From positions 256,001 through 320,000 of the forward strand of contig CAVOXA010000022.1 in NCBI GenBank assembly GCA_963700285.1: DNA of 64,000 nt. Direction: 5' to 3'. Below are positions 39,831-50,392 of the stretch, piece by piece (position 1 is the first letter of the stretch; each line of letters opens with the position of its first letter). The notes beneath the pieces were generated by a model that was given only the letters and a program-made list of their open reading frames with translations, did no database searches and was not told the origin of the DNA. The stretch comes from an uncultured Chloroflexia bacterium (GTDB lineage Bacteria; Chloroflexota; Anaerolineae; JAAYZQ01). A program made the position numbers and the translations under genes.

Positions 39831-40079
39831 TCAAGCGGTCCGCCCAAGCTTTCCATCTAGGGGCAACTCGCTGGTCGTACTCTCCTGCTCCAGCCAGGCA
39901 CCTACCACCGAGAGCAGGTGCCCTGCCTCGCCCATCAGGCGCCGGCCCAGGCGGGATACCCGTTCCAGGGACTTGGTGCCCGACGTGCGGGAGAGACGCC
40001 AGCTCGCTGCTTCGTCCTCTGATTCTTTTCGGTACTGGTCTACGATCATCATTCCCAGGTATGGATCCATCGGCAACAT
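39831..40079 (-). CDS. Small hypothetical protein (paralog 3)
   Basis: AGGAGG RBS; shares the SRLGRRLMGEAGHLLSVVGAWLE amphipathic motif with its neighbours. Confidence 0.7.
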   Translation of the reverse strand: MLPMDPYLGMMIVDQYRKESEDEAASWRLSRTSGTKSLERVSRLGRRLMGEAGHLLSVVGAWLEQESTTSELPLDGKLGRTA

Positions 40080-40218
40080 GTTGCACCTCCTCAGGCTAGT
40101 ACTACCGTTGTTTACCCCTTGAGCGGAACTGCGCTCGTTTTCCCGGCAGGGTGATGAAAAGAGGCCCAGGTCATCCATCTTCTGCGGCTTTCTGCCAGGC
40201 CTGGGCCGGGCTGCCAGG

Positions 40219-40467
40219 TCACGACGTCGCTCTCATCTGGTCGGCTCGTGCTGCCTTGCCTGGTACGCCTTGTAGTTCGAGCCAGGTGCCCAGTCTTTGC
40301 AGGCTATGGCCCGACTGGCGGAACAGGCGGCTCACCATGCCTGCCAACCAGCCCTGGGCCCCAGCTTTGCTTTCCTGCCCGAGGCGGGAAGCTTCTGCCT
40401 CCTGCTGCGCTTGGCGTACGCTGTCGTTCATCAATCGTTCGGCCCAATACAGGTCCTCGCCCAGCAT
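40219..40467 (-). CDS. Small hypothetical protein (paralog 2)
   Basis: AGGAGG RBS; GWLAGMVSRLFRQSGHSLQRLGTWLE. Confidence 0.7.
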   Translation of the reverse strand: MLGEDLYWAERLMNDSVRQAQQEAEASRLGQESKAGAQGWLAGMVSRLFRQSGHSLQRLGTWLELQGVPGKAARADQMRATS

Positions 40468-40519
40468 CTGTCACCTCCTACCATCATCTGTCTCTCCAGG
40501 TTCTGTTGAGAGCCCACCC

Positions 40520-40762
40520 CTAGCCGCTCCAGCTCATCCGTGTGTCCAAGGATGACCCGGGCCATGCGCCATTCCGGTCCAGCCACGCCTCTGCGCATGA
40601 GAGCAGATACCCAGATCTATCGAGGAGGCGGCGGCCCCGGCGCGACAGCCACCCCCGCGGGCTGAGGGCGTCCCGATCCAGATATATCGCATTCGCTCCC
40701 TGCGCCTTGGCGCGGCGCGATGCCACAAAAATGCCTGCCGACCGTTCGTTTGTACCGTTCAT
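40520..40762 (-). CDS. Small hypothetical protein (paralog 1)
   Basis: GAGGAG RBS; GWLSRRGRRLLDRSGYLLSCAEAWLD. Confidence 0.6.
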   Translation of the reverse strand: MNGTNERSAGIFVASRRAKAQGANAIYLDRDALSPRGWLSRRGRRLLDRSGYLLSCAEAWLDRNGAWPGSSLDTRMSWSG

Positions 40763-40803
40763 CAGGGCTCCTCTTCGTCAGGGGTTCGAGCCTGACTATA
40801 CAC

Positions 40804-40833
40804 ATGAACGAGGGCTGGGCCCGATTTCCGGCA
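40804..40833 (-). promoter_or_regulatory. Putative ECF promoter TGCCGGAAA-N14-CGTTCAT
   Basis: Same boxes and spacing at 43141-43170; variants at 40119-40148 and 46875-46905. Confidence 0.6.
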
Positions 40834-40841
40834 GGCCAAGC

Positions 40842-40874
40842 AAAAAAGAGCCCCTGGTAACAAACCAGGGGCTC
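40842..40874 (-). terminator. Intrinsic terminator after the S8 gene
   Basis: Minus strand GAGCCCCTGGT-loop-ACCAGGGGCTC-TTTTTT. Confidence 0.8.
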
Positions 40875-40904
40875 GCTGGCTCCGTGCCAGCCTGGCCAGG
40901 CTGG

Positions 40905-43043
40905 CTAGGGCACAGGCATACAGCGGTAGAGGCTGGCCAGGACGTCGATCACGCCATCGCCGGTGGGCGCGCCGCAGCGGACCGCCGTAAAGACGTCCGA
41001 GGGCGGCACCCAGGTTTCCGTGCCAGGGGTGCCGGTGGTCGCCTTGTCTTGGATCAGGGCGGCCAGCCCGCTGACCAGCGGCGCGGCAAACGAGGTGCCG
41101 CTCCAGTGGGCGTAGCCGATCTTGCCCTCAAAGATGTGTTGCGCAAAGCTGGTGAGACCCACGTCGCACTCGCCCTTGCATTTGTTGACGACCGACATGC
41201 ACGTGGTCTCTGTCGCCTGATCGCAATACTCCCCGTTCAGGTTCGCTAATAGGTCTGTGTTCACTCCGCCATCCCCTGCCGGGGCAGAGACATCGCCCCA
41301 GTTGGAGAAACAGGACCGTTGGCGGCTGATGTTGCTACCGGCAACGCCGATTACCGAGGGATAGGCCGCCGGCAGGTGGGGTGCTCGCGGGATAGAGTCT
41401 ACCCCGGAGTCGTTGCCTGCGGCTGCCACGACGACCGCGCCATAGTCATGAGCCACTCGTATGGCTTCCTGAAGCGATTCGACCTTGTCCTCCACAAACA
41501 CAGTCAGCGTCTCGTCGATGTACACATCCGCGCTCTTGGGCGGCCCCTCGGTGTCTTCTTCAGGAACCTTTTTGCCGGTTCCCCCGTTCTCGTCCTGTAG
41601 GGTGCATTCCCCGCCGCCTTCTCCAGTCTGCTCCTCATCTTCTTTCAGCACGATCTCGGTATCCGTCGAGGGCTTTTGCAGGCCCAGGCTGAGGTTGATG
41701 ACGGCACCGTCCAGGGAATCCCGTCTAGTCTCGAATTCGGCGACAAAGTTGAGCAGCGCCTCGTTCAGGGCGAACAGTTGGCCGCAACCAGTATCGTCCA
41801 GCACTTGCACCAGCATGATGTCAGCGTCTGGTGCCATGCCGTGGATCAGGCCGGACACGAACAAGCCGTGGTCGCGGACGTCCGCAACCGGCACGGTGAA
41901 GCTGGGCAACGTGGCGGGCGTCGACGGAGACATCAGCTCAAGTACCCAGGCCGGGCTCACTCCGTCCTCGGCGGTCAGCGAGACCGTTGTCGTCCCCTTG
42001 TCCCAAGCAGAACCGGGGGTCCCGGGCTCGGGGACGGGGAAAGGCGAGGTATCGAACACGCCCGCCAGTACGCCGGCGCCGGTCGGCAGTTCTGTCAGCG
42101 GCATGGTGGCCGTGGGCCACGGGCTCAGGCCGATGTGTTTGAAAGCCCACTGGTCCCGGAACTGCTTGGTCGTCGCCTTGCTGGCGGTACCAAGGGGACT
42201 GGGCCCGATGCTGTGCTTGAGAATCTCTACGGTGTCCTTGCCCTGTTCCAGGGGGTCCGGCTGGTACCACTCAACGCTCTCAAAAGGGCTGGGCCCGTAC
42301 GAGTAGGGGCTGGGTCCAATGCTGTGCTTGCTACCGCAGGAACTCAGCCCCAGGAGCCCGGTCCAGTAGTTGGCGTCGGCATAGACGGGCTCGCGACCTC
42401 TGGCCTCCTCGAAGGCCTTGAGCGTTTCCGCCACCATCCCTCTGGTCTCAATGGTGTACAGCCTGGTTTGAAGCACCTCTCGGCCAGGATCGCTGCTCAG
42501 GCTGACCCGGCAAGTGCGGTGCTGGCTTAGTGTGATTGTCTCGGACACCTGATCGGCAACGAGGTTCATCACCTCCTCGTTCGGACCGGTGACGATGATC
42601 TGATCCTCGAGAAAGTAGGGCTGGGGCTCTGTCGTCCGTGGCTCGGGGTACTCTCCTTCGCAGGTGACAATGATCTGGGGCTCCTGCGGTGGCGCCTGTG
42701 TCGCCTGCGCTGGCTCTCTCGCCTCTTCTGGCTGCGCCAGCTTTTCCCATACGCTTGGGCCCAGGGTCATTGCCGCCAGCAGACACACTATGACGAACGC
42801 CACAACCAGTCCAGCGGCAAGGATTTTTAGGATGCGCCAGTGTTTCGCGGCGACGTCTTTTCCCCCGTTTTCGTCTTCTCTTCTGTTTTCGTGGCTGCTG
42901 GGTGCTATGCTGCTACTTTCCTCTTGCACCCCCCCACCTTTTCCGGATCCGGCCTCCCCTCGGGGCGCCGTGGCCCCCTCTGGAGCCTCGCTCCCTTCAG
43001 GCGCCGCGCTGTCGTTGGTTCCCATCTTCTTCTTGTCTGCCAT
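40905..43043 (-). CDS. Membrane-anchored S8 (subtilase) serine peptidase
   Basis: One TM helix near the N-terminus; GVFDTS, DHGLFVSG, INLSLG, AAAGND, SGTSFAAP. Confidence 0.9.
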   Translation of the reverse strand: MADKKKMGTNDSAAPEGSEAPEGATAPRGEAGSGKGGGVQEESSSIAPSSHENRREDENGGKDVAAKHWRILKILAAGLVVAFVIVCLLAAMTLGPSVWEKLAQPEEAREPAQATQAPPQEPQIIVTCEGEYPEPRTTEPQPYFLEDQIIVTGPNEEVMNLVADQVSETITLSQHRTCRVSLSSDPGREVLQTRLYTIETRGMVAETLKAFEEARGREPVYADANYWTGLLGLSSCGSKHSIGPSPYSYGPSPFESVEWYQPDPLEQGKDTVEILKHSIGPSPLGTASKATTKQFRDQWAFKHIGLSPWPTATMPLTELPTGAGVLAGVFDTSPFPVPEPGTPGSAWDKGTTTVSLTAEDGVSPAWVLELMSPSTPATLPSFTVPVADVRDHGLFVSGLIHGMAPDADIMLVQVLDDTGCGQLFALNEALLNFVAEFETRRDSLDGAVINLSLGLQKPSTDTEIVLKEDEEQTGEGGGECTLQDENGGTGKKVPEEDTEGPPKSADVYIDETLTVFVEDKVESLQEAIRVAHDYGAVVVAAAGNDSGVDSIPRAPHLPAAYPSVIGVAGSNISRQRSCFSNWGDVSAPAGDGGVNTDLLANLNGEYCDQATETTCMSVVNKCKGECDVGLTSFAQHIFEGKIGYAHWSGTSFAAPLVSGLAALIQDKATTGTPGTETWVPPSDVFTAVRCGAPTGDGVIDVLASLYRCMPVP

Positions 43044-43140
43044 CGACTTTTCTCCCTTCTCTGCTGACCCAGCGGACGCGTCGTCCTCCTGGGTATCCGG
43101 CGAGGTCTCCGCTCCTCAGGACCGCATGTACTTCCAGACT

Positions 43141-43170
43141 ATGAACGCCGAGCCTGCGGCTTTTCCGGCA
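43141..43170 (-). promoter_or_regulatory. Putative ECF promoter upstream of S8
   Basis: TGCCGGAAA-agccgcaggctcgg-CGTTCAT. Confidence 0.6.
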
Positions 43171-43216
43171 CTGGGATCCACTCTGGTATACTCCCCGGTC
43201 GGATTCGGCGGAGCTG

Positions 43217-46093
43217 CTACAGGGGTCCAGCCGCACCAACAAGGAAGAACGGGGCCCAGTAGTAGGGATGCGCGCCAACAGCAGGCCCACCGCCATCTCC
43301 CTCCTGCAGGAACTGCAACTGGGCGTGGCGCAGCGCTGCCCCCTTGGTCCATCCTTCCGACAGCTTTTCGTAAAAGGCGACCATCAGTTCGGCTGTGGAA
43401 CGGTCCTCGACCGCCCACAGGCTGAGTACCAGCGAGGCCGCCCCGGCGCAGAGAAAGGCCCTCATCAGGCCCAAGAGTTCGTCTCCTCCGCCGACGACGT
43501 TGCGCCCCGTCTGGCAGGCGCTGAGCGTGACCAGCGAGGCCTGAAGGCGCAGACCAAAGATGTCGAGGGTGGTCAGCCAGCCGTCGGATAGGGATAGGCC
43601 AGAGAAGAGAGGGTTATCCGCCCGGAAATCTCCGTGGGCGGCCAGGTGTACGGTGCGAACCTGGCCCATCATCTCCCCGATTTCCTCCGGCCTGGCCTGG
43701 TCCTCCAGCAGGACCTGGCCCCCCAGGAGCGCGGCCACCGCTTGGGCCTCGTGTACAACGTGGGGCAGGTGACCGCTGAGGGAATGCCCAACCGCCAGCA
43801 AGCCCGAATGGGCCAGTGGGGCCTCCTGGCAGTAGCGCAGGAAGCTTGCGCCGGGCAGGTAGCTGACCTCGTACTGCTCCAGAAGGTACGACGTCCCATC
43901 GTGCAGGGCATGAAAGGGCAGGTAGTGCAGCAGGCCGTGGGGCACAACGACCAGCTTCTGGTATCCCCCCAGGTAACTGGCCAGCGGCGCCAAAAGCAAC
44001 TGGTAGAGCTTGTGCAGGAGACCCCGGGCGTTGGCCGCTAGCCTGGTCACCTGTTCCTCTCCGCTCCGGGGCACGGCCTCCAGATTGAGCCACAGACGCT
44101 TCACAATCGGTTGGATGTCGGCCAGTTTACAGCCCAAGCGGTGGGCCTGCACCTCGCGGTCCGAGACCAAGAACGCGATCAGTTCTCCGTGCAGGCAAAA
44201 GTACTCGATCAGCAGGGTATCCGGCGGCAAATAGGGTTGGACCGGCTCGGTGCGGATGGTCCACAGGCTGGCCTCGCGCGCATAGTCGGCGTTTCGGATC
44301 AGAAGCCGGTGCCACAGATCCGTGATCTCTTGCTCTAGACCCAGCACCTCCTGCTGGGCCTGGCGGCGATCCGCGTCCGCCGAAGACCAGCCCCGTTCGG
44401 CGGATTCGTCGTCGCCTTCCCAGCGGCGGTACAGTCGATCTCGCTTGGCACGCAGCCGGAGGAGCTCGTCGACCAGGGGGCGGTCGGCTTCGCTGTGGGC
44501 CTGGATCCCCAGGCTGAGGCGATGGGTCACCAGGTCGAGCAGGCTGCGGCTCTTGGCCTGCTCTGCAACCTGCAGTCCGCGCGCTGGATTGCCCAGTTCC
44601 AGGCAGGCAGCTACGGCGTCCTCGTAGAGGGTCTCCTTGTCTTCCACGAAACCGACCCGGAACTCGACCATCAGGCGGCCTCGCAGACGCTCCACTCTTT
44701 CGATGGCCCGGTCGTAGGCTGCCAGGGCAGCCGGCAGATCCCCCGCTCCGGCTGCCACGGCGCCCAAAATGTGCTGGCCCTGGTACTCAAGCGCCGGGAC
44801 ATTGTGCTCCTGGGCGGCGCTCAGTGCCTGCTCGGCCAGCGCGCGGGCCAGGTCACCACTTTCCAGCGCCGCCGCGGCCCGGGCGGCTACTAGGCGAGCC
44901 TGTGCGCCTTCGATGGGCAGGTCGTGAGCGCCAAAGACCGCAGCGCAGTCCTGGGCCAGGGCCAGGCTTTCCTGGTAGCGCCCCTGCCGCTGGAGTACGG
45001 CCGCGATCTCGACGTCGGTGGAGGCCGCCAGGGCGCGGTTGCCCTCCGCCTCGAAGGCTTTGCGTGCTTCGGCCAGAGAGGCCAGGGCGTCTTCATAGCG
45101 GCCCAATTCTGCGTAGGCGACCGCCTCGTTGACGACGGCATGGCCTACCCAGTCTCGCATGCCGAGGCTGGCTAAAAGAGTGCGCGCCCGTTGGCATGTC
45201 TTCAGGACGTCGCCAAACCGCCGGAGCTGCAAGAGGCAATCGCTGGTGAGAAGCTCCACCACCATGGCGTCGCGCTGGCGACCATCGGCCAAAAAGATCT
45301 CACGCACCTGTTCAAGGTGGGCCAGGGCCTCGTTGTAGCGCCCCAGGACAAAGTAGGTGAGGGCCAGGCACTGGCGTGCTCGAGCCGCTTCGACCGTCTG
45401 TCCCTGGCGCTCCATCCCGGACATGGCCGTCCGGCTGGCCTCGATCGATTCCTCGAAACGTCCCAGCGTGCAGAGGGCGACGGCCCGATTCTGTTGGGCC
45501 AACAGCCACATAGACTGACCATCGGCGCCAATCTCCTCGTATAGTTCGGCCGCCCGGTCAAAGCTCGCCAACGAGCGTAGTTCATCTCCGGCGCGGCTGT
45601 GGACGATGCCCAGGTTCATGGTTAGCGTGGCCAGGATCTGCCATTCGCCTTCCTCCTCCAGCACGCCGCTGGCCCACCGCCCGGCTTCGAGGGCTTTTTC
45701 GTAGCGGCCCAGATTGGCCAGTGCGCCGATCTTGCCTACCTGGGAGCGGGCCTGCTCCGTGGCACGCCCGTGGCTGCCATAGATCTCGGCCGCCTGATCG
45801 TACAAAGCGATAGACTTTTCGTACTCGGCCAGGCCGATGCAAAGGGCATTGGCCTGGGCCAAAAGGCCTTGGGCGTGGTGCAGGCGGTCGCCCGATAGCT
45901 CGGCCAGGACAAAGAGAAGCTGGGCGGTCTCTTGCGAGCGATGGATGTCCGACCAGAGGTACTGGTCGGCCTGGCCTTTGAGCGCAGTTGCGACCTGGCC
46001 GTCCAGCAGGGCGGCGTTGGCCCGCAGGAACCTTTCCTGGGCCCTCACGTCGGGGAGTGCCAGCAGTCTCTCGATCAGTTCCTCAGTGGACAT
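43217..46093 (-). CDS. TPR-repeat CHAT (caspase-like) domain protein
   Basis: TPR array; VVPHGLLHYLPFHAL, HLAAHG, LSACQTG (intact His/Cys dyad), SLWAVED, HPYYWAPF. Confidence 0.93.
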   Translation of the reverse strand: MSTEELIERLLALPDVRAQERFLRANAALLDGQVATALKGQADQYLWSDIHRSQETAQLLFVLAELSGDRLHHAQGLLAQANALCIGLAEYEKSIALYDQAAEIYGSHGRATEQARSQVGKIGALANLGRYEKALEAGRWASGVLEEEGEWQILATLTMNLGIVHSRAGDELRSLASFDRAAELYEEIGADGQSMWLLAQQNRAVALCTLGRFEESIEASRTAMSGMERQGQTVEAARARQCLALTYFVLGRYNEALAHLEQVREIFLADGRQRDAMVVELLTSDCLLQLRRFGDVLKTCQRARTLLASLGMRDWVGHAVVNEAVAYAELGRYEDALASLAEARKAFEAEGNRALAASTDVEIAAVLQRQGRYQESLALAQDCAAVFGAHDLPIEGAQARLVAARAAAALESGDLARALAEQALSAAQEHNVPALEYQGQHILGAVAAGAGDLPAALAAYDRAIERVERLRGRLMVEFRVGFVEDKETLYEDAVAACLELGNPARGLQVAEQAKSRSLLDLVTHRLSLGIQAHSEADRPLVDELLRLRAKRDRLYRRWEGDDESAERGWSSADADRRQAQQEVLGLEQEITDLWHRLLIRNADYAREASLWTIRTEPVQPYLPPDTLLIEYFCLHGELIAFLVSDREVQAHRLGCKLADIQPIVKRLWLNLEAVPRSGEEQVTRLAANARGLLHKLYQLLLAPLASYLGGYQKLVVVPHGLLHYLPFHALHDGTSYLLEQYEVSYLPGASFLRYCQEAPLAHSGLLAVGHSLSGHLPHVVHEAQAVAALLGGQVLLEDQARPEEIGEMMGQVRTVHLAAHGDFRADNPLFSGLSLSDGWLTTLDIFGLRLQASLVTLSACQTGRNVVGGGDELLGLMRAFLCAGAASLVLSLWAVEDRSTAELMVAFYEKLSEGWTKGAALRHAQLQFLQEGDGGGPAVGAHPYYWAPFFLVGAAGPL

Positions 46094-46115
46094 GATCCTC
46101 TTTGGCGTCAGGCGC

Positions 46116-46853
46116 CTATGGATCGCCTATCTTCAGCTCCGGGATCTGGATCTCCACCTCGCGCCCGCTGAGCATCAGTTGGTAGTCTCCCGGGGCCAGG
46201 TTGGAGATGGTAAAGTTGCCCAATTCATCCACGGCAACCTCCGCGACCAGCCGGTCATCCTGCCAAAGCCGGGCCTCCAGGCCGCTGGGTTCTCCACCAG
46301 CGACCAAGCCCAGCAGGCCAAGGAACTCCTGCCGCTCGTCGTCGTGCTCGATCTCGACGACCAGTTGGTACTCTTCAGCCTGGTAGACCAGAGGTCCCCC
46401 CTCCTCGTCACCACGCAGCCCGGCAAAGGCCGGAGCGGGTGCCAGTGTGGGCAACTGGCCCGGCCCCGGTACCCTCCGTACCAACTCGGCGATCACGATC
46501 TTGACTTGCTCCAGCGCGCCCAGTGCAACGTCTGGCGCCAGCTCAGCCAGGTAGGTCTGTAACTGCGCGACTTCGCGGCTGCAGTGAGGACATTCCGCCA
46601 GGTGTAGGGCTACCGCCCCGGCCTGTTCCTGGCCCAGCAGGCCCAAATGGTATTCTCCCAGGTCTGTCGAGGAAGGGCAGGCAAGGCGGTACAGCCTGGA
46701 GGCCAGGCGTCCTTGCAGCAGGGCCAATTGGCTGGCTCTCTCCCTGCACTGCGCGCACTGCCCCACGTGCTCGACCACCTCGCTGTCTGCCTCGCCATCA
46801 AGGTAGGCCAAGAGCTGCGCATCCCCCAACTCTGGCCTGTGTTCACTTGTCAT
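46116..46853 (-). CDS. Putative soluble anti-sigma factor with two zf-HC2 motifs and a C-terminal beta-sandwich
   Basis: LLAYLDG..EHVGQCAQC and EYHLG..HLAECPHC; AGLRG; VDELGNFTISNLAPGDYQL; no TM segment. Confidence 0.75.
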   Translation of the reverse strand: MTSEHRPELGDAQLLAYLDGEADSEVVEHVGQCAQCRERASQLALLQGRLASRLYRLACPSSTDLGEYHLGLLGQEQAGAVALHLAECPHCSREVAQLQTYLAELAPDVALGALEQVKIVIAELVRRVPGPGQLPTLAPAPAFAGLRGDEEGGPLVYQAEEYQLVVEIEHDDERQEFLGLLGLVAGGEPSGLEARLWQDDRLVAEVAVDELGNFTISNLAPGDYQLMLSGREVEIQIPELKIGDP

Positions 46854-46898
46854 GGGTTCCTCTCCTTCGCGATACTAAACGCAGCAACCCGCCCTTTT

Positions 46899-47603
46899 TC
46901 ATGCATCGCCCCGCAAGATCTTTTGCAGTTCGGTATCGCGGCCCAGCCGGGCGAGTACGTTCTCCTTGATGCGGTAGACCTCTTTTACATCGCGAAAGCT
47001 CTCCTCGAACTGGGCGTAAAGCTCGCGGGGCTTGAGGGCCAGAACGAAGGAGCCATAGACGATGATCCGCTCTCGATCATCGTTGAGGCGCGCGGTCACC
47101 TGCTGCCAGAGCTCCTCGCGGCGAAAGCGATCCCATTCCTGTTCACCGCCTGGGGCCCCGTCTGTCGCGGCCTGGCCGGAATGGCCCTCCGGCTCAAGGT
47201 CGACGAGCTGGAGTTGGGCCCGCCGGGAATCGTCGATGATGGCGCTGTGCGCGCACATCTGCAGGTAGCGCAGCAGTGACTTGAGATCAGGAAAGCGCTG
47301 GAACCTCTCGGGTGGCAGGGCGACCCACATCTTTTCAAAGGCGCGATTGACAAAGTACTGGACCTCCTCGCCGCTGGCCGGAAAGGAGGAATGGCGCCGG
47401 ATCCAGCCGATCACAAGGGGGCGGTACTGGGTGTAGACCAGGTCCCAGGCGTCCTGGTCTCGTTCGACGATGGCGCGGCGGAACATTTCGAAGCAGAACC
47501 GGGGGTTGTGTCGCTTCTTTTGGAAAAAGAGGGTCGTTTCCTGAGCGCAGCGGCGCGCGATGCCAACAAGAGGTACTTGCTTCAAGTCATTCTGTTGGGC
47601 CAT
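46899..47603 (-). CDS. ECF-type sigma-70 factor
   Basis: DQDAWDLVYTQYRPLV..W, VNRAFEKMW, YLQMCAHSAIIDDSRR (region 2); region-4-like C-terminus. Confidence 0.8.
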   Translation of the reverse strand: MAQQNDLKQVPLVGIARRCAQETTLFFQKKRHNPRFCFEMFRRAIVERDQDAWDLVYTQYRPLVIGWIRRHSSFPASGEEVQYFVNRAFEKMWVALPPERFQRFPDLKSLLRYLQMCAHSAIIDDSRRAQLQLVDLEPEGHSGQAATDGAPGGEQEWDRFRREELWQQVTARLNDDRERIIVYGSFVLALKPRELYAQFEESFRDVKEVYRIKENVLARLGRDTELQKILRGDA

Positions 47604-48004
47604 GTGCTCCACACCCAGTCGCTCGGGGCATCGGCTGTCCTGCCGGATCATGGAAACCGCCAGCCGGCACAGTTGCTGGCACCGCCGCTTTCCCACACCT
47701 GCTGCGGTTGGCCAGGTTACCGTGAGCTTGCGGTACAGGTTGGATGGGCTGAATGTCCGCCCCATTTCCCCCAAATTATACCATAACGAGGGCGCTTTTG
47801 CAAGGGGCAAAAGTAGGGACAGTATGCCTGGCTGTCCCGTTCGATGTTTTGCCGTCCCATCTAAAAGATAGTATAATGTGGCCCGCGGCCCTGACGCCAA
47901 TCAGTTTCCATCATGTCGGATGGAGTCACAAACACAGGCTCCTCGGCGCCGCCAACGCGGGCGGGGAGCCGAGCCGGTCAGCACAAGAACCGTGGGGAGA
48001 GGGC

Positions 48005-48646
48005 ATGATCCGCCTGTTGATCGTCACCGAGATTGAACTCATTGGCAATGTCCTTGCTGCCTCGATGGAGGAAGCGCCGGACATAGAGGTTATCGGCTGC
48101 GCCACCTCTGCGGAAGAGGCGATGAGTAGGGTAGCGGAAGCCGACGTGATCCTGGTGAGCCCCAGGCTGCCCGAAGAAGGCGCCCTGAGGCTCACCACAA
48201 CCATCGCCGAAAACCATGCTTCGGTCAAAATCCTGGCCTTTGGTTTGGCCGAATCCCAAGCCCAGGTCCTCAAGTACATCGAGGCCGGCGCCGACGGATA
48301 TGTGGCCAGTGACGACTCGGTCGAGGATCTGCTGACACGTATCCGCCTTGCTCACCAGGACAAGGCTGTGGTCTCTCCCGCAATCGCTGCCGCCTTGATG
48401 TCGAGGGTGAAAATGTACGCCCAGTTGCTCTCCGACGTCGAATTGGGGCTGTACGAAGACGCGGACCTGACTCCCCGCGAGCGCGAGGTCCTCGATCTGA
48501 TCGCCCTCGGGCTCAGCAATCAAGAGATTGCCGACCGGTTGGTTATCGAAGTGGGCACGGTCAAGAACCACGTCCACAGCATTCTGCAAAAGTTGAACGT
48601 GGGCAGCCGGGAGGACGCCGCGGCCTATCTGGCCCTTGTGGAATAG
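48005..48646 (+). CDS. NarL/LuxR family response regulator with atypical receiver domain
   Basis: LTPREREVLDLIALGLSNQEIADRL..TVKNHVHSILQKL; receiver has DVILVS where the phospho-Asp is expected. Confidence 0.9.
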   Translation: MIRLLIVTEIELIGNVLAASMEEAPDIEVIGCATSAEEAMSRVAEADVILVSPRLPEEGALRLTTTIAENHASVKILAFGLAESQAQVLKYIEAGADGYVASDDSVEDLLTRIRLAHQDKAVVSPAIAAALMSRVKMYAQLLSDVELGLYEDADLTPREREVLDLIALGLSNQEIADRLVIEVGTVKNHVHSILQKLNVGSREDAAAYLALVE

Positions 48647-49652: not shown

Positions 49653-49776
49653 GAGGCTGATCATGGTTGCGCGTCACAGGCTCACCCTACTCCGGCCGGC
49701 TGCCCTGCGGGTACGCGAGACACTCTCTGCGCCGCCATGCCCCTTGCCGTCTGAGCCGCAAAAACGATCGAGGCTC

Positions 49777-50004
49777 ATGGAGCGGAAACTGAGAACCGTC
49801 AAGCCAACGAGGTTGGCTGAGGTTCTGCGCGACCTTGCCTGGCGCCAAAGGACAGGGCAAGCCAGTGAACAGGACGTGCGCCTTTTGCGCCGCGCTGATC
49901 GAGAACTGGCTCGTTGGCTGGCCACGCAAACGGGCGAAGAGACGAAATGGGTCCGGCGACGGATGTGGGGCCTCGTCGACAGGGCCATCTCCCGTTTCGC
50001 CTGA
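49777..50004 (+). CDS. Small basic hypothetical protein
   Basis: ATG after GAGG; fits the operon spacing. Confidence 0.5.
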   Translation: MERKLRTVKPTRLAEVLRDLAWRQRTGQASEQDVRLLRRADRELARWLATQTGEETKWVRRRMWGLVDRAISRFA

Positions 50005-50029
50005 CGGGACAACAACCATGGGGGGCAAC

Positions 50030-50392
50030 ATGAAAGCTACAAAGCAATATCTTGAAAGACGATTGGCCGAAACACGCCAGGAACTGGCCCGGCTGGATAA
50101 GCGCCTGAAGGCAAAAGGCGATTATGGTCCGGGTAGAGGAGATCCGCTTATCGTGCGTTGGGAACTCAACCTGGCGATCCGAGAAAGGACCCAGGAAAGG
50201 CTTGAACAACTGGAAGAGGCTCTGGCGCGCCTGGACGAAGGGGACTATGGCAGTTGCGAGTCCTGCGGGCTGCCCATCCATCCGGAACGACTGGAAGCCT
50301 TGCCGGGCGCCACGCTCTGCATCAAGTGCGCGCGCGACATGGAGCAGGATGGCAGGCTGTCGGCCCTTGCCCTGGCTCAGGCTGCCCAGTGA
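50030..50392 (+). CDS. TraR/DksA C4-type zinc finger protein
   Basis: ALARLDEGDYGSCESCGLPIHPERLEALPGATLCIKC. Confidence 0.9.
   Translation: MKATKQYLERRLAETRQELARLDKRLKAKGDYGPGRGDPLIVRWELNLAIRERTQERLEQLEEALARLDEGDYGSCESCGLPIHPERLEALPGATLCIKCARDMEQDGRLSALALAQAAQ

Follow-up and report, generated by a model that had tools for sequence, protein, structure and literature searches.

In a 64,000-nucleotide stretch of DNA from an uncultured Chloroflexia bacterium (here referred to as the window; GenBank assembly GCA_963700285.1, contig CAVOXA010000022.1, positions 256,001 to 320,000 of the forward strand), seven co-oriented minus-strand genes at window positions 39831 to 47603 encode a divergent extracytoplasmic function (ECF)-like sigma factor, a soluble zinc-binding anti-sigma (ZAS)-like protein, a tetratricopeptide repeat (TPR)-CHAT protease, a membrane-anchored S8 subtilase, and three small paralogous proteins. 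An ECF-type promoter motif recurs within this module and before four unlinked genes. From the sequences, we tentatively propose, with a little less than even confidence, a CHAT-gated sigma switch in which the CHAT protease would cut the linker of the anti-sigma factor, the sigma factor would be freed, and the regulon would be transcribed. New here are the ECF-type promoter and its regulon, an arginine-containing linker and beta-sandwich shared with the product of the gene at position +1 (directly after the sigma gene) in actinobacteria, and tandem heptapeptides in the S8 protease. An open reading frame (ORF) list and profile scans of the window recovered all seven genes of the module proposed in the initial annotation, co-oriented as described there, although the third small gene encodes 82 rather than 115 amino acids. 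For comparison, we scanned with an anti-sigma profile and kept one genome per species, which yielded 54 loci, nearly all from Chloroflexota metagenome-assembled genomes (MAGs); the locus of the nearest relative (L001) was aligned with the window, which revealed islands of conservation between the genes.

The predicted regulon is defined by a two-block motif, TGCCGGAAAA-N13/14-CGTTYAT, found before the anti-sigma/CHAT genes, the S8 gene, the small genes, and the four unlinked genes. Promoter P1 (46873 to 46905, minus strand; TGCATGAAAA-N14-CGTTTAGTA; two-block position weight matrix [PWM] score, 24.5) lies 5′ of the anti-sigma gene and overlaps the sigma stop codon. P2 (43139 to 43170, minus strand; TGCCGGAAAA-N13-CGTTCATAG; score, 30.5) lies 5′ of the S8 gene, and P3 (40802 to 40833, minus strand; score, 25.6) lies 5′ of the small genes. 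P1 has the same sequence in L001, where P2 and P3 are also conserved, and an equivalent of P1, whose −35 element overlaps the sigma stop codon, occurs at the sigma/anti-sigma junction in most loci. With a flexible spacer, the PWM found exactly three matches in the 64-kb window (at 46905, 43170, and 40833), all in the module, and none in five shuffles; the strict pattern TGCCGGAAA-N14-CGTTCAT occurs twice in the window, before the S8 gene and the first small gene, versus 0 expected. Across the 54 loci plus the window there were 82 PWM matches, 73 of them on the gene strand, compared with 2.3 in shuffles. The motif in orthologous loci precedes the S8 gene and also the gene after it, whatever its product, such as a Peptidase_C25 protein (L002) or an NHL-like protein (L012). 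A weak promoter-like site near small paralog 3 (at 40148) scored 10.4.

Genome-wide (7.05 Mb), seven motif matches reached a score of ≥24.5, versus one in a reversed-genome control, and each lies 19 to 100 nucleotides before an ORF. Three of the four unlinked sites (G000 C10:1437189, C9:58769, C1:1071890, and C5:243953; loci L058, L057, L055, and L056) precede genes for membrane-anchored proteins with short tandem repeats (RYKALANYYAS..., GNGYGPYG..., and ANPELMAA...), and the fourth precedes a gene for a 110-residue cysteine-rich protein; the S8 protease may act on the products of these genes, or they may be additional precursors of peptides. The co-location of gene and motif is most simply read as recognition of the motif by this sigma factor. 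The proposal in the initial annotation that the sigma factor induces the S8 protease and the small proteins is supported, as a prediction, by the same ECF-type motif before the S8 gene and the first small gene; its occurrence before the anti-sigma/CHAT pair had not been foreseen.

The sigma gene itself has a different kind of promoter. At 47775 to 47803 (minus strand) is a sigmaA-type, housekeeping promoter, TTGCAA-17-TGGTATAAT (TATAAT-type −10 with a TG extension), which scored 10 of 12 in a consensus scan and is kept base for base in L001 while its flanks diverge. We sought an autoregulatory ECF promoter 5′ of the sigma gene and rejected it, as the best two-block word across 46 upstream regions, with a count of 6, did not stand out from shuffles (5 to 6). 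An intrinsic terminator (40848 to 40874, minus strand; an 11-bp stem with eight GC pairs, followed by a T run) lies 3′ of the S8 gene, and its stem is conserved in L001.

We accept the 234-residue product of the single-copy gene at 46899 to 47603 (minus strand) as a very divergent ECF-like sigma factor, identified by sub-threshold profile matches and a predicted fold. Its match to the TIGR02937 profile scored 31.8 bits (E value, 9.5e-8) against a cut-off of 42.9, and neither PF04542, PF08281, nor any other Pfam family matched at an E value of ≤0.01. We retrieved 985 homologues, and of the 120 listed, none carried a precomputed Pfam domain; against PDB sequences, the sigma profile matched only region 4 of FliA (E value, 0.23). 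An AlphaFold2 (AF2) model built from 26 orthologues (mean predicted local distance difference test [pLDDT] score, 84.8) has two helical domains and a low-confidence linker at residues 136 to 154. The Foldseek matches listed, all with E values of >1e-3 and TM-scores of 0.25 to 0.30, are RNA polymerase sigma chains, including the ECF factors sigmaE, AlgU, SigK, SigW, and SigL. The protein has a conserved N-terminal extension of ∼40 residues. In the 26 orthologues, Cys19 (within this extension) and Cys117 are invariant and Cys37 is near-invariant; the sigma factor itself may have a metal or redox site formed by these cysteines. In the 5′ leader of the gene, a stretch of ∼40 nucleotides (47618 to 47657, minus strand; TTTCCATGATCCGGCAGGACAGCCGATGCCCCGAGCGAC) is near-identical in L001 although its flanks have diverged. 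It has no Rfam match. Because L001 lacks an ATG there, it is probably not a coding sequence but a regulatory site or RNA element. Over 39.0 to 48.2 kb, Rfam gave one sub-threshold match, to MicL, which falls on the terminator and was taken as chance.

The anti-sigma gene, also single copy (46116 to 46853, minus strand), encodes 245 residues, in which two zinc-finger motifs are followed by a linker modeled with low confidence and then by a C-terminal beta-sandwich. The ligands H29/C33/C36 and C59 plus H84/C88/C91 are all invariant in 20 homologues, and the core of C59, H84, C88, and C91 is invariant across 31 diverse members. Finger 2 has the ZAS arrangement of HxxxCxxC with a fourth ligand ∼25 residues upstream; the upstream ligand of finger 1, Cys3 in most long forms, is missing in the window protein. 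The double HxxxCxxC described in the initial annotation is therefore present in the window protein but does not extend to the short forms (∼195 to 215 amino acids), which keep finger 2 only. Matches to known families are sub-threshold: zf-HC2 (PF13490), at 20.6 bits, fell short of its 22.2-bit cut-off, although most homologues carry precomputed PF13490, and NCBIfam anti-sigma models scored 23 to 34 bits, each below its cut-off. Weak matches of the anti-sigma profile to PDB entries were led by ZAS anti-sigma factors (E values: RsiW, 0.024; DdvA, 0.048; RslA, 0.062; ChrR, 0.41). The protein has no hydrophobic stretch (maximum 19-residue Kyte-Doolittle average [KD19], 1.19) and is predicted to be soluble. 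A word-indexed search gave 222 family matches, and a search of 50%-cluster representatives gave 3,874 at an E value of ≤1e-3 and 535 at ≤1e-30.

In the AF2 model of the anti-sigma factor, pLDDT falls below 50 at residues 120 to 139 and 145 to 150, and the linker is likely disordered; the beta-sandwich follows at residues 155 to 242, and Foldseek matched the model to generic Ig-like beta-sandwiches only, none at an E value of ≤1e-3. Within the linker lies A144-G-L-R147-G148 (46410 to 46424, minus strand), a candidate site for CHAT cleavage or docking. The initial annotation had offered AGLRG as a guess for the cleavage site, and the guess coincides with a motif that does exist and is nearly invariant: neither R147 nor G148 varies in the 20-homologue alignment, and 248 of 265 family members have [LIVMAF]RG, with most others keeping xR[GSD]. 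One relative, L085 (G260:C78), has lost all zinc ligands but retains the beta-sandwich and an ALRG linker, and a CHAT gene still adjoins its own. Other family matches lie inside frames of 507 to 521 amino acids (G236:C1:86029-86697, G203:C100:21480-22148, and G268:C1:4376911-4377579), which may be fusions with another domain. The beta-sandwich also occurs as a long tandem array, because two giant proteins, P0241 (6,305 amino acids) and P0327 (3,022 amino acids), match it 52 and 27 times, respectively.

The 958-residue TPR-CHAT protein (43217 to 46093, minus strand) matches PF12770 at 236 bits (E value, 6e-70) as well as TPR families, and the intact His/Cys dyad reported in the initial annotation, H820 and C860, is invariant in 22 orthologues, as in the CHAT family of caspase-like proteases. 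ORF and hydropathy analysis found no signal peptide or transmembrane helix in it, consistent with a cytoplasmic location. The 712-residue S8 protein (40905 to 43043, minus strand) has a pro-domain and matches PF00082 at 68.6 bits (E value, 7e-19). Its description as a membrane-anchored subtilase with an intact triad was borne out by a transmembrane helix at residues 74 to 92 (KD19, 2.99) and by D331, H392, N544, and S651 (the triad and the oxyanion Asn), which are invariant in 17 orthologues.

Gene order is conserved across Chloroflexota as sigma, anti-sigma, TPR-CHAT, and S8, which answers the question of synteny on which the initial annotation had made its proposal depend. A full-length anti-sigma relative was found in 48 of the 54 loci; among assessable loci, the anti-sigma gene is immediately preceded by the sigma gene in 44 of 47 and immediately followed by CHAT in 33 of 41, and S8 comes next after CHAT in 22 of 27. 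The two marks of an ECF locus, a two-block promoter within the locus and an adjacent anti-sigma gene, were both found, as the three module sites and as the ZAS-like +1 gene in those 44 of 47 loci. The anti-sigma factor occurs in 61 of 301 sampled Chloroflexota genomes, with a concentration in two families, where 18 of 18 and 20 of 21 genomes have it, and six sampled genomes have two to three whole sigma/anti-sigma/CHAT(-S8) units each. The eight loci without the usual adjacent CHAT gene are of several kinds. For L013 and L037, a CHAT-S8 pair lies elsewhere in the genome, and the genomes of L039, L040, and L042 have a second sigma/anti-sigma pair, arranged divergently beside a CHAT-S8 pair. In L028 (5202 to 12571), genes for a trypsin-like protease, a MoxR AAA ATPase, a DUF58 protein, and two BatA/VWA proteins stand between the anti-sigma gene and a CHAT gene with a shorter product (591 amino acids); L051 has the adjacent CHAT gene on the opposite strand, and L033 has none on its short contig.

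Two further observations concern the arrangement and integrity of the cassette. In the Chloroflexia loci L063 to L065 (G003 to G005), it is split into divergent halves, anti-sigma plus sigma versus CHAT plus S8, and L063 also has a promoter-like site directed toward CHAT. In L001 (10001 to 15898), tblastn recovered each of the anti-sigma, CHAT, and S8 genes as overlapping pieces; the frameshifts probably stem from faulty assembly of a long-read MAG and not from gene decay.

The S8 proteins carry short peptide repeats that offer a candidate signal. In 10 of 34 S8 orthologues, two to five tandem heptapeptides directly follow the end of the pro-domain (ADPNY): PWTVAGS in five copies (L017); PWEVGGS (L026) and PFIIGGS (L011) in four; PFEVGGS (L014), PWVATGS (L016), PWEPTGS (L018), and PWEPAGS (L020) in three; and PFEVGGS (L007), PFSIGGS (L015), and PNSVGGS (L006) in two. 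The arrays of L011 and L026 were seen in alignments, and the others were counted by script. Many other S8 orthologues have a single GSP[WF]-like unit. Within each array the protein copies are identical, yet in 9 of 10 arrays they differ by one to five synonymous bases per 21, which argues for purifying selection on the peptide and not for recent slippage. In the window (42195 to 42329, minus strand), KHSIGPSP occurs twice, at residues 239 to 246 and 276 to 283, together with YSYGPSP, just after the pro-domain end ADANY; the two copies of KHSIGPSP have three synonymous differences, and both are exact in L001 though the spacer has diverged. The actinobacterial S8 protein of L066 has no tandem heptapeptides. 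We regard these peptides as a candidate ligand for the TPR array of the CHAT protein. Members of the RRNPPA family of Bacillota are cytoplasmic TPR receptors for a short peptide that is exported, processed, and reimported. The likeness is one of analogy only and consists in a cytoplasmic TPR protein paired with a candidate heptapeptide signal; the RRNPPA receptor is a transcription factor or phosphatase, whereas here it would be a protease, and the RRNPPA precursor is a small dedicated pro-peptide, whereas here the tandem copies lie inside an exported protease. PapRa7 is an example of a heptapeptide signal (PMC3519770).

The three small paralogs noted in the initial annotation are also upheld. 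They encode 80 (40520 to 40762), 82 (40219 to 40467), and 82 (39831 to 40079) amino acids, all on the minus strand; each has a strong ribosome-binding site, and orthologues stand in the same order in L001. The start of the third was corrected from 40178 to 40079, where a ribosome-binding site precedes an ATG and where the L001 orthologue also begins. No family in Pfam, NCBIfam, or PADLOC matched them, and an iterated hidden Markov model search gave six matches, the three in the window and the three in L001, with none in the other 53 loci. The Atlas lead for paralog 2 was a score of 0.89 to hypothetical Chloroflexota clusters of 80 to 84 amino acids. Upstream of the module, a divergent gene for a LuxR-type response regulator (47753 to 48646, plus strand) adjoins the sigma promoter and is followed at 49663 to 50392 (plus strand) by ORFs matching the CarD C-terminal domain and the DksA/TraR zinc finger, both of which belong to RNA polymerase-binding regulators.

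The initial annotation overstated the novelty: an ECF sigma factor with a CarboxypepD_reg-like +1 protein, a subtilase, and a TPR-CHAT protein is already the context of the ECF54 group, which was reportedly catalogued by Huang et al. in 2015. As described by Casas-Pastor et al. in 2021 (PMC7826278) and in PMC8999054, ECF54 is associated with these three proteins, and proteolytic control has been proposed; according to PMC7826278, the group is 100% actinobacterial, without a putative anti-sigma factor, and has the predicted promoter GTATCAG/CTCC. The window shares with ECF54 a +1 protein that has a CarboxypepD_reg-like beta-sandwich, together with a subtilase and a TPR-CHAT protein. It differs in its Chloroflexota host, in the one or two ZAS-type zinc fingers of the +1 protein, in the gene order sigma, +1, CHAT, and S8, and in its promoter, TGCCGGAAAA-N13/14-CGTTYAT. 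As an actinobacterial example, we used a Nonomuraea chromosome (found, mislabelled, by tblastn of plasmid records) that encodes an S8 protein, a sigma factor (Sigma70_r2), a +1 protein, and a TPR-CHAT protein; we took its sigma factor to be ECF54 from the context, and the promoter GTATCAG...CTCC is absent from this locus. Its +1 gene encodes 147 amino acids and has an ATG that overlaps the sigma stop codon. The actinobacterial +1 family (17 sequences) has no HxxxCxxC but has an invariant linker Arg and a beta-sandwich, which align with the linker and beta-sandwich of the Chloroflexota anti-sigma factors (hhalign probability, 86.9%; E value, 4e-6; 91 columns). In contrast, the window and Nonomuraea sigma factors have no detectable likeness (hhalign probability, 2%). 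Because the sigma factors are unlike and the promoters differ, the window sigma factor is not ECF54, but the +1/CHAT/S8 module is shared.

In the literature available to us on such cassettes, we found only work on CRISPR, DdvA, and ECF54, and accounts of later ECF groups may mention CHAT. Closest in logic, together with the proposal for DdvA, is the type III-E CRISPR system in which the TPR-CHAT protease Csx29 cleaves Csx30, the inhibitor of an ECF-like sigma factor, in a flexible loop and recognizes its C-terminal domain (PMC10028731). There, the N-terminal part of the inhibitor binds the sigma factor, CASP-sigma, which has target promoters in its own locus (PMC10028731). The window likewise places a TPR-CHAT gene beside genes for an ECF-like sigma factor and a predicted inhibitor with a likely disordered linker. 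However, Csx29 depends on Cas7-11 and target RNA for its activation, Csx30 does not belong to the ZAS proteins, and no cas genes are among the ORFs scanned at 27 to 60 kb of the window. The likeness of the CHAT protein to Csx29 is at the domain level only: Csx29 (NF041237) is its best NCBIfam match but, at 63.3 bits, is far below the cut-off of 300. In the DdvA/DdvS system of Myxococcus xanthus, a ZAS domain is coupled to a TPR-CHAT domain and controls an ECF sigma factor, and cleavage by CHAT has been proposed, not demonstrated (PMC11506125). DdvA is a single polypeptide with an N-terminal ZAS domain, a transmembrane helix, and a TPR-CHAT part that lies in the periplasm and has an incomplete active site, and regulated intramembrane proteolysis via RseP is proposed for it (PMC11506125), whereas the anti-sigma and CHAT proteins here are separate, cytoplasmic, and free of transmembrane helices. 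The predicted outputs here are proteases, and those of DdvA/DdvS are CBASS or CRISPR. ECF271 may be the formal home of the window sigma factor, on a comparison by description only. The group is described as 82% Chloroflexi plus Bryobacter, with a soluble zinc-finger anti-sigma factor at +1 and the predicted promoter GCTGCTG/GxTCA (PMC7826278); only the −10 element (GTTCA) is like that in the window, and the ECF271 description available mentions no CHAT or subtilase context. One of the 54 loci, for which the match is confined to the N-terminal part, comes from a Bryobacteraceae genome.

In the CHAT-gated switch that we favor, the N-terminal zinc part of the cytoplasmic anti-sigma factor would hold the sigma factor, and the co-transcribed TPR-CHAT protease would cut the anti-sigma factor in the conserved linker, with the cut predicted after Arg147; separase is a precedent for cleavage after Arg (PMC11506125). 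The freed sigma factor would then transcribe the anti-sigma/CHAT pair itself as well as the S8 gene and the three small genes, and in addition about four unlinked genes for envelope proteins. Our preferred guess for what activates CHAT is an S8-derived peptide that would be released outside and taken up again. In such a self-inducing circuit, which we consider unlikely in its entirety, the released and reimported heptapeptide would be bound by the TPR array of CHAT, the anti-sigma factor cut, and the sigma factor freed. Several observations weigh against these proposals. The CHAT gene itself lies behind a sigma-type promoter, so CHAT could be an output and not the trigger. Because the sigma-binding half would survive a cut at Arg147, the model has to assume that further degradation follows. 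ZAS motifs can sense thiols or redox state without any protease. Recognition of the motif by this sigma factor is deduced solely from co-location. For the peptide circuit, tandem peptides are limited to the 10 S8 orthologues listed above, and synteny with peptide importers is not conserved (a substrate-binding protein in 1 of 77 loci and OppC in 2 of 77). A proposed association of the linker Arg with CHAT linkage also had to be dropped. By eye, the CHAT-less L039, L040, and L042 seemed to be without the motif, and the CHAT-linked paralogs L063 to L065 of the same genomes to have it. With hmmalign, however, the Arg was found in 43 of 48 CHAT-adjacent anti-sigma factors (the five misses being alignment shifts or frameshifted assembly) versus 8 of 9 CHAT-less ones. 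It is wholly absent only in L040; L039, L042, and L084 deviate at neighboring positions, and the remaining signal is a weak post hoc deviation at such positions in at most three lineages.

The main rival explanation, which is doubtful in our judgment but deserves real weight, is that the anti-sigma factor is itself the sensor of thiol, redox, or metal, as in RsrA-type proteins, with CHAT and S8 merely in the regulon and CHAT acting on other substrates. It would account for two complete and invariant Cys/His motifs and for an ECF-type promoter before the anti-sigma/CHAT genes in the window and most loci, which predicts that CHAT is sigma dependent; other exported proteins, such as the Peptidase_C25 protein of L002, stand behind the same promoter, and gene context cannot separate regulators from targets, as noted in PMC7826278. 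Less easily accommodated is the persistence of linker and protease where the zinc sites are reduced or lost: the CHAT-linked L085 keeps its ALRG linker and CHAT without zinc ligands, the actinobacterial +1 proteins keep the linker Arg, the beta-sandwich, and a CHAT neighbor without HxxxCxxC, and the short forms lack finger 1. Duplication of whole units, furthermore, keeps each anti-sigma factor with its own CHAT. The same linker conservation can be turned around, as a short motif conserved within a disordered linker would be expected of a docking or pseudosubstrate site no less than of a cleavage site, and separase is held by the pseudosubstrate inhibitor securin (PMC11506125). The beta-sandwich and linker might thus dock on TPR-CHAT and inhibit or recruit it, with the N-terminal extension of the sigma factor, the small proteins, or others as the CHAT substrates. 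The conservation of that ∼40-residue extension, with its invariant Cys19, suits this arrangement, but the small proteins are not a general CHAT substrate, because they are confined to the window and L001, and we judge the explanation as a whole to be rather improbable. We see very little likelihood that the cassette is an anti-phage or abortive infection module, a CRISPR-free analogue of craspase or DdvA/DdvS. Its nearest studied relatives, Csx29/Csx30 and DdvA/DdvS, are linked to defense (PMC10028731, PMC11506125), and the sub-threshold match to Csx29 points the same way. However, PADLOC gave no matches except a weak one to the subtilase (E value, 1e-5), the neighbors within ∼12 kb are metabolic and regulatory with no cas or defense genes, the module is predicted to switch on exported proteases and repeat proteins of the envelope, and the cassette is vertically widespread in the two families in which it is concentrated.

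The pairing of an ECF sigma factor with TPR-CHAT and a subtilase has been catalogued since 2015 without a mechanism. The joining of a zinc domain, in the Chloroflexota proteins, to an actinobacterial-type Arg linker and beta-sandwich suggests that the +1 protein of ECF54 is the missing anti-sigma factor and the likely target of the protease. The promoter motif provides a concrete regulon, and the S8 heptapeptides provide a concrete candidate signal. If the peptide reading were true, the cassette would represent a new class of bacterial cell-cell signaling receptor and a CRISPR-free relative of craspase: a quorum-sensing-like receptor with proteolysis, not DNA binding, as its output. In varying forms, it would be common to Chloroflexota, Actinomycetota (ECF54), and further phyla.

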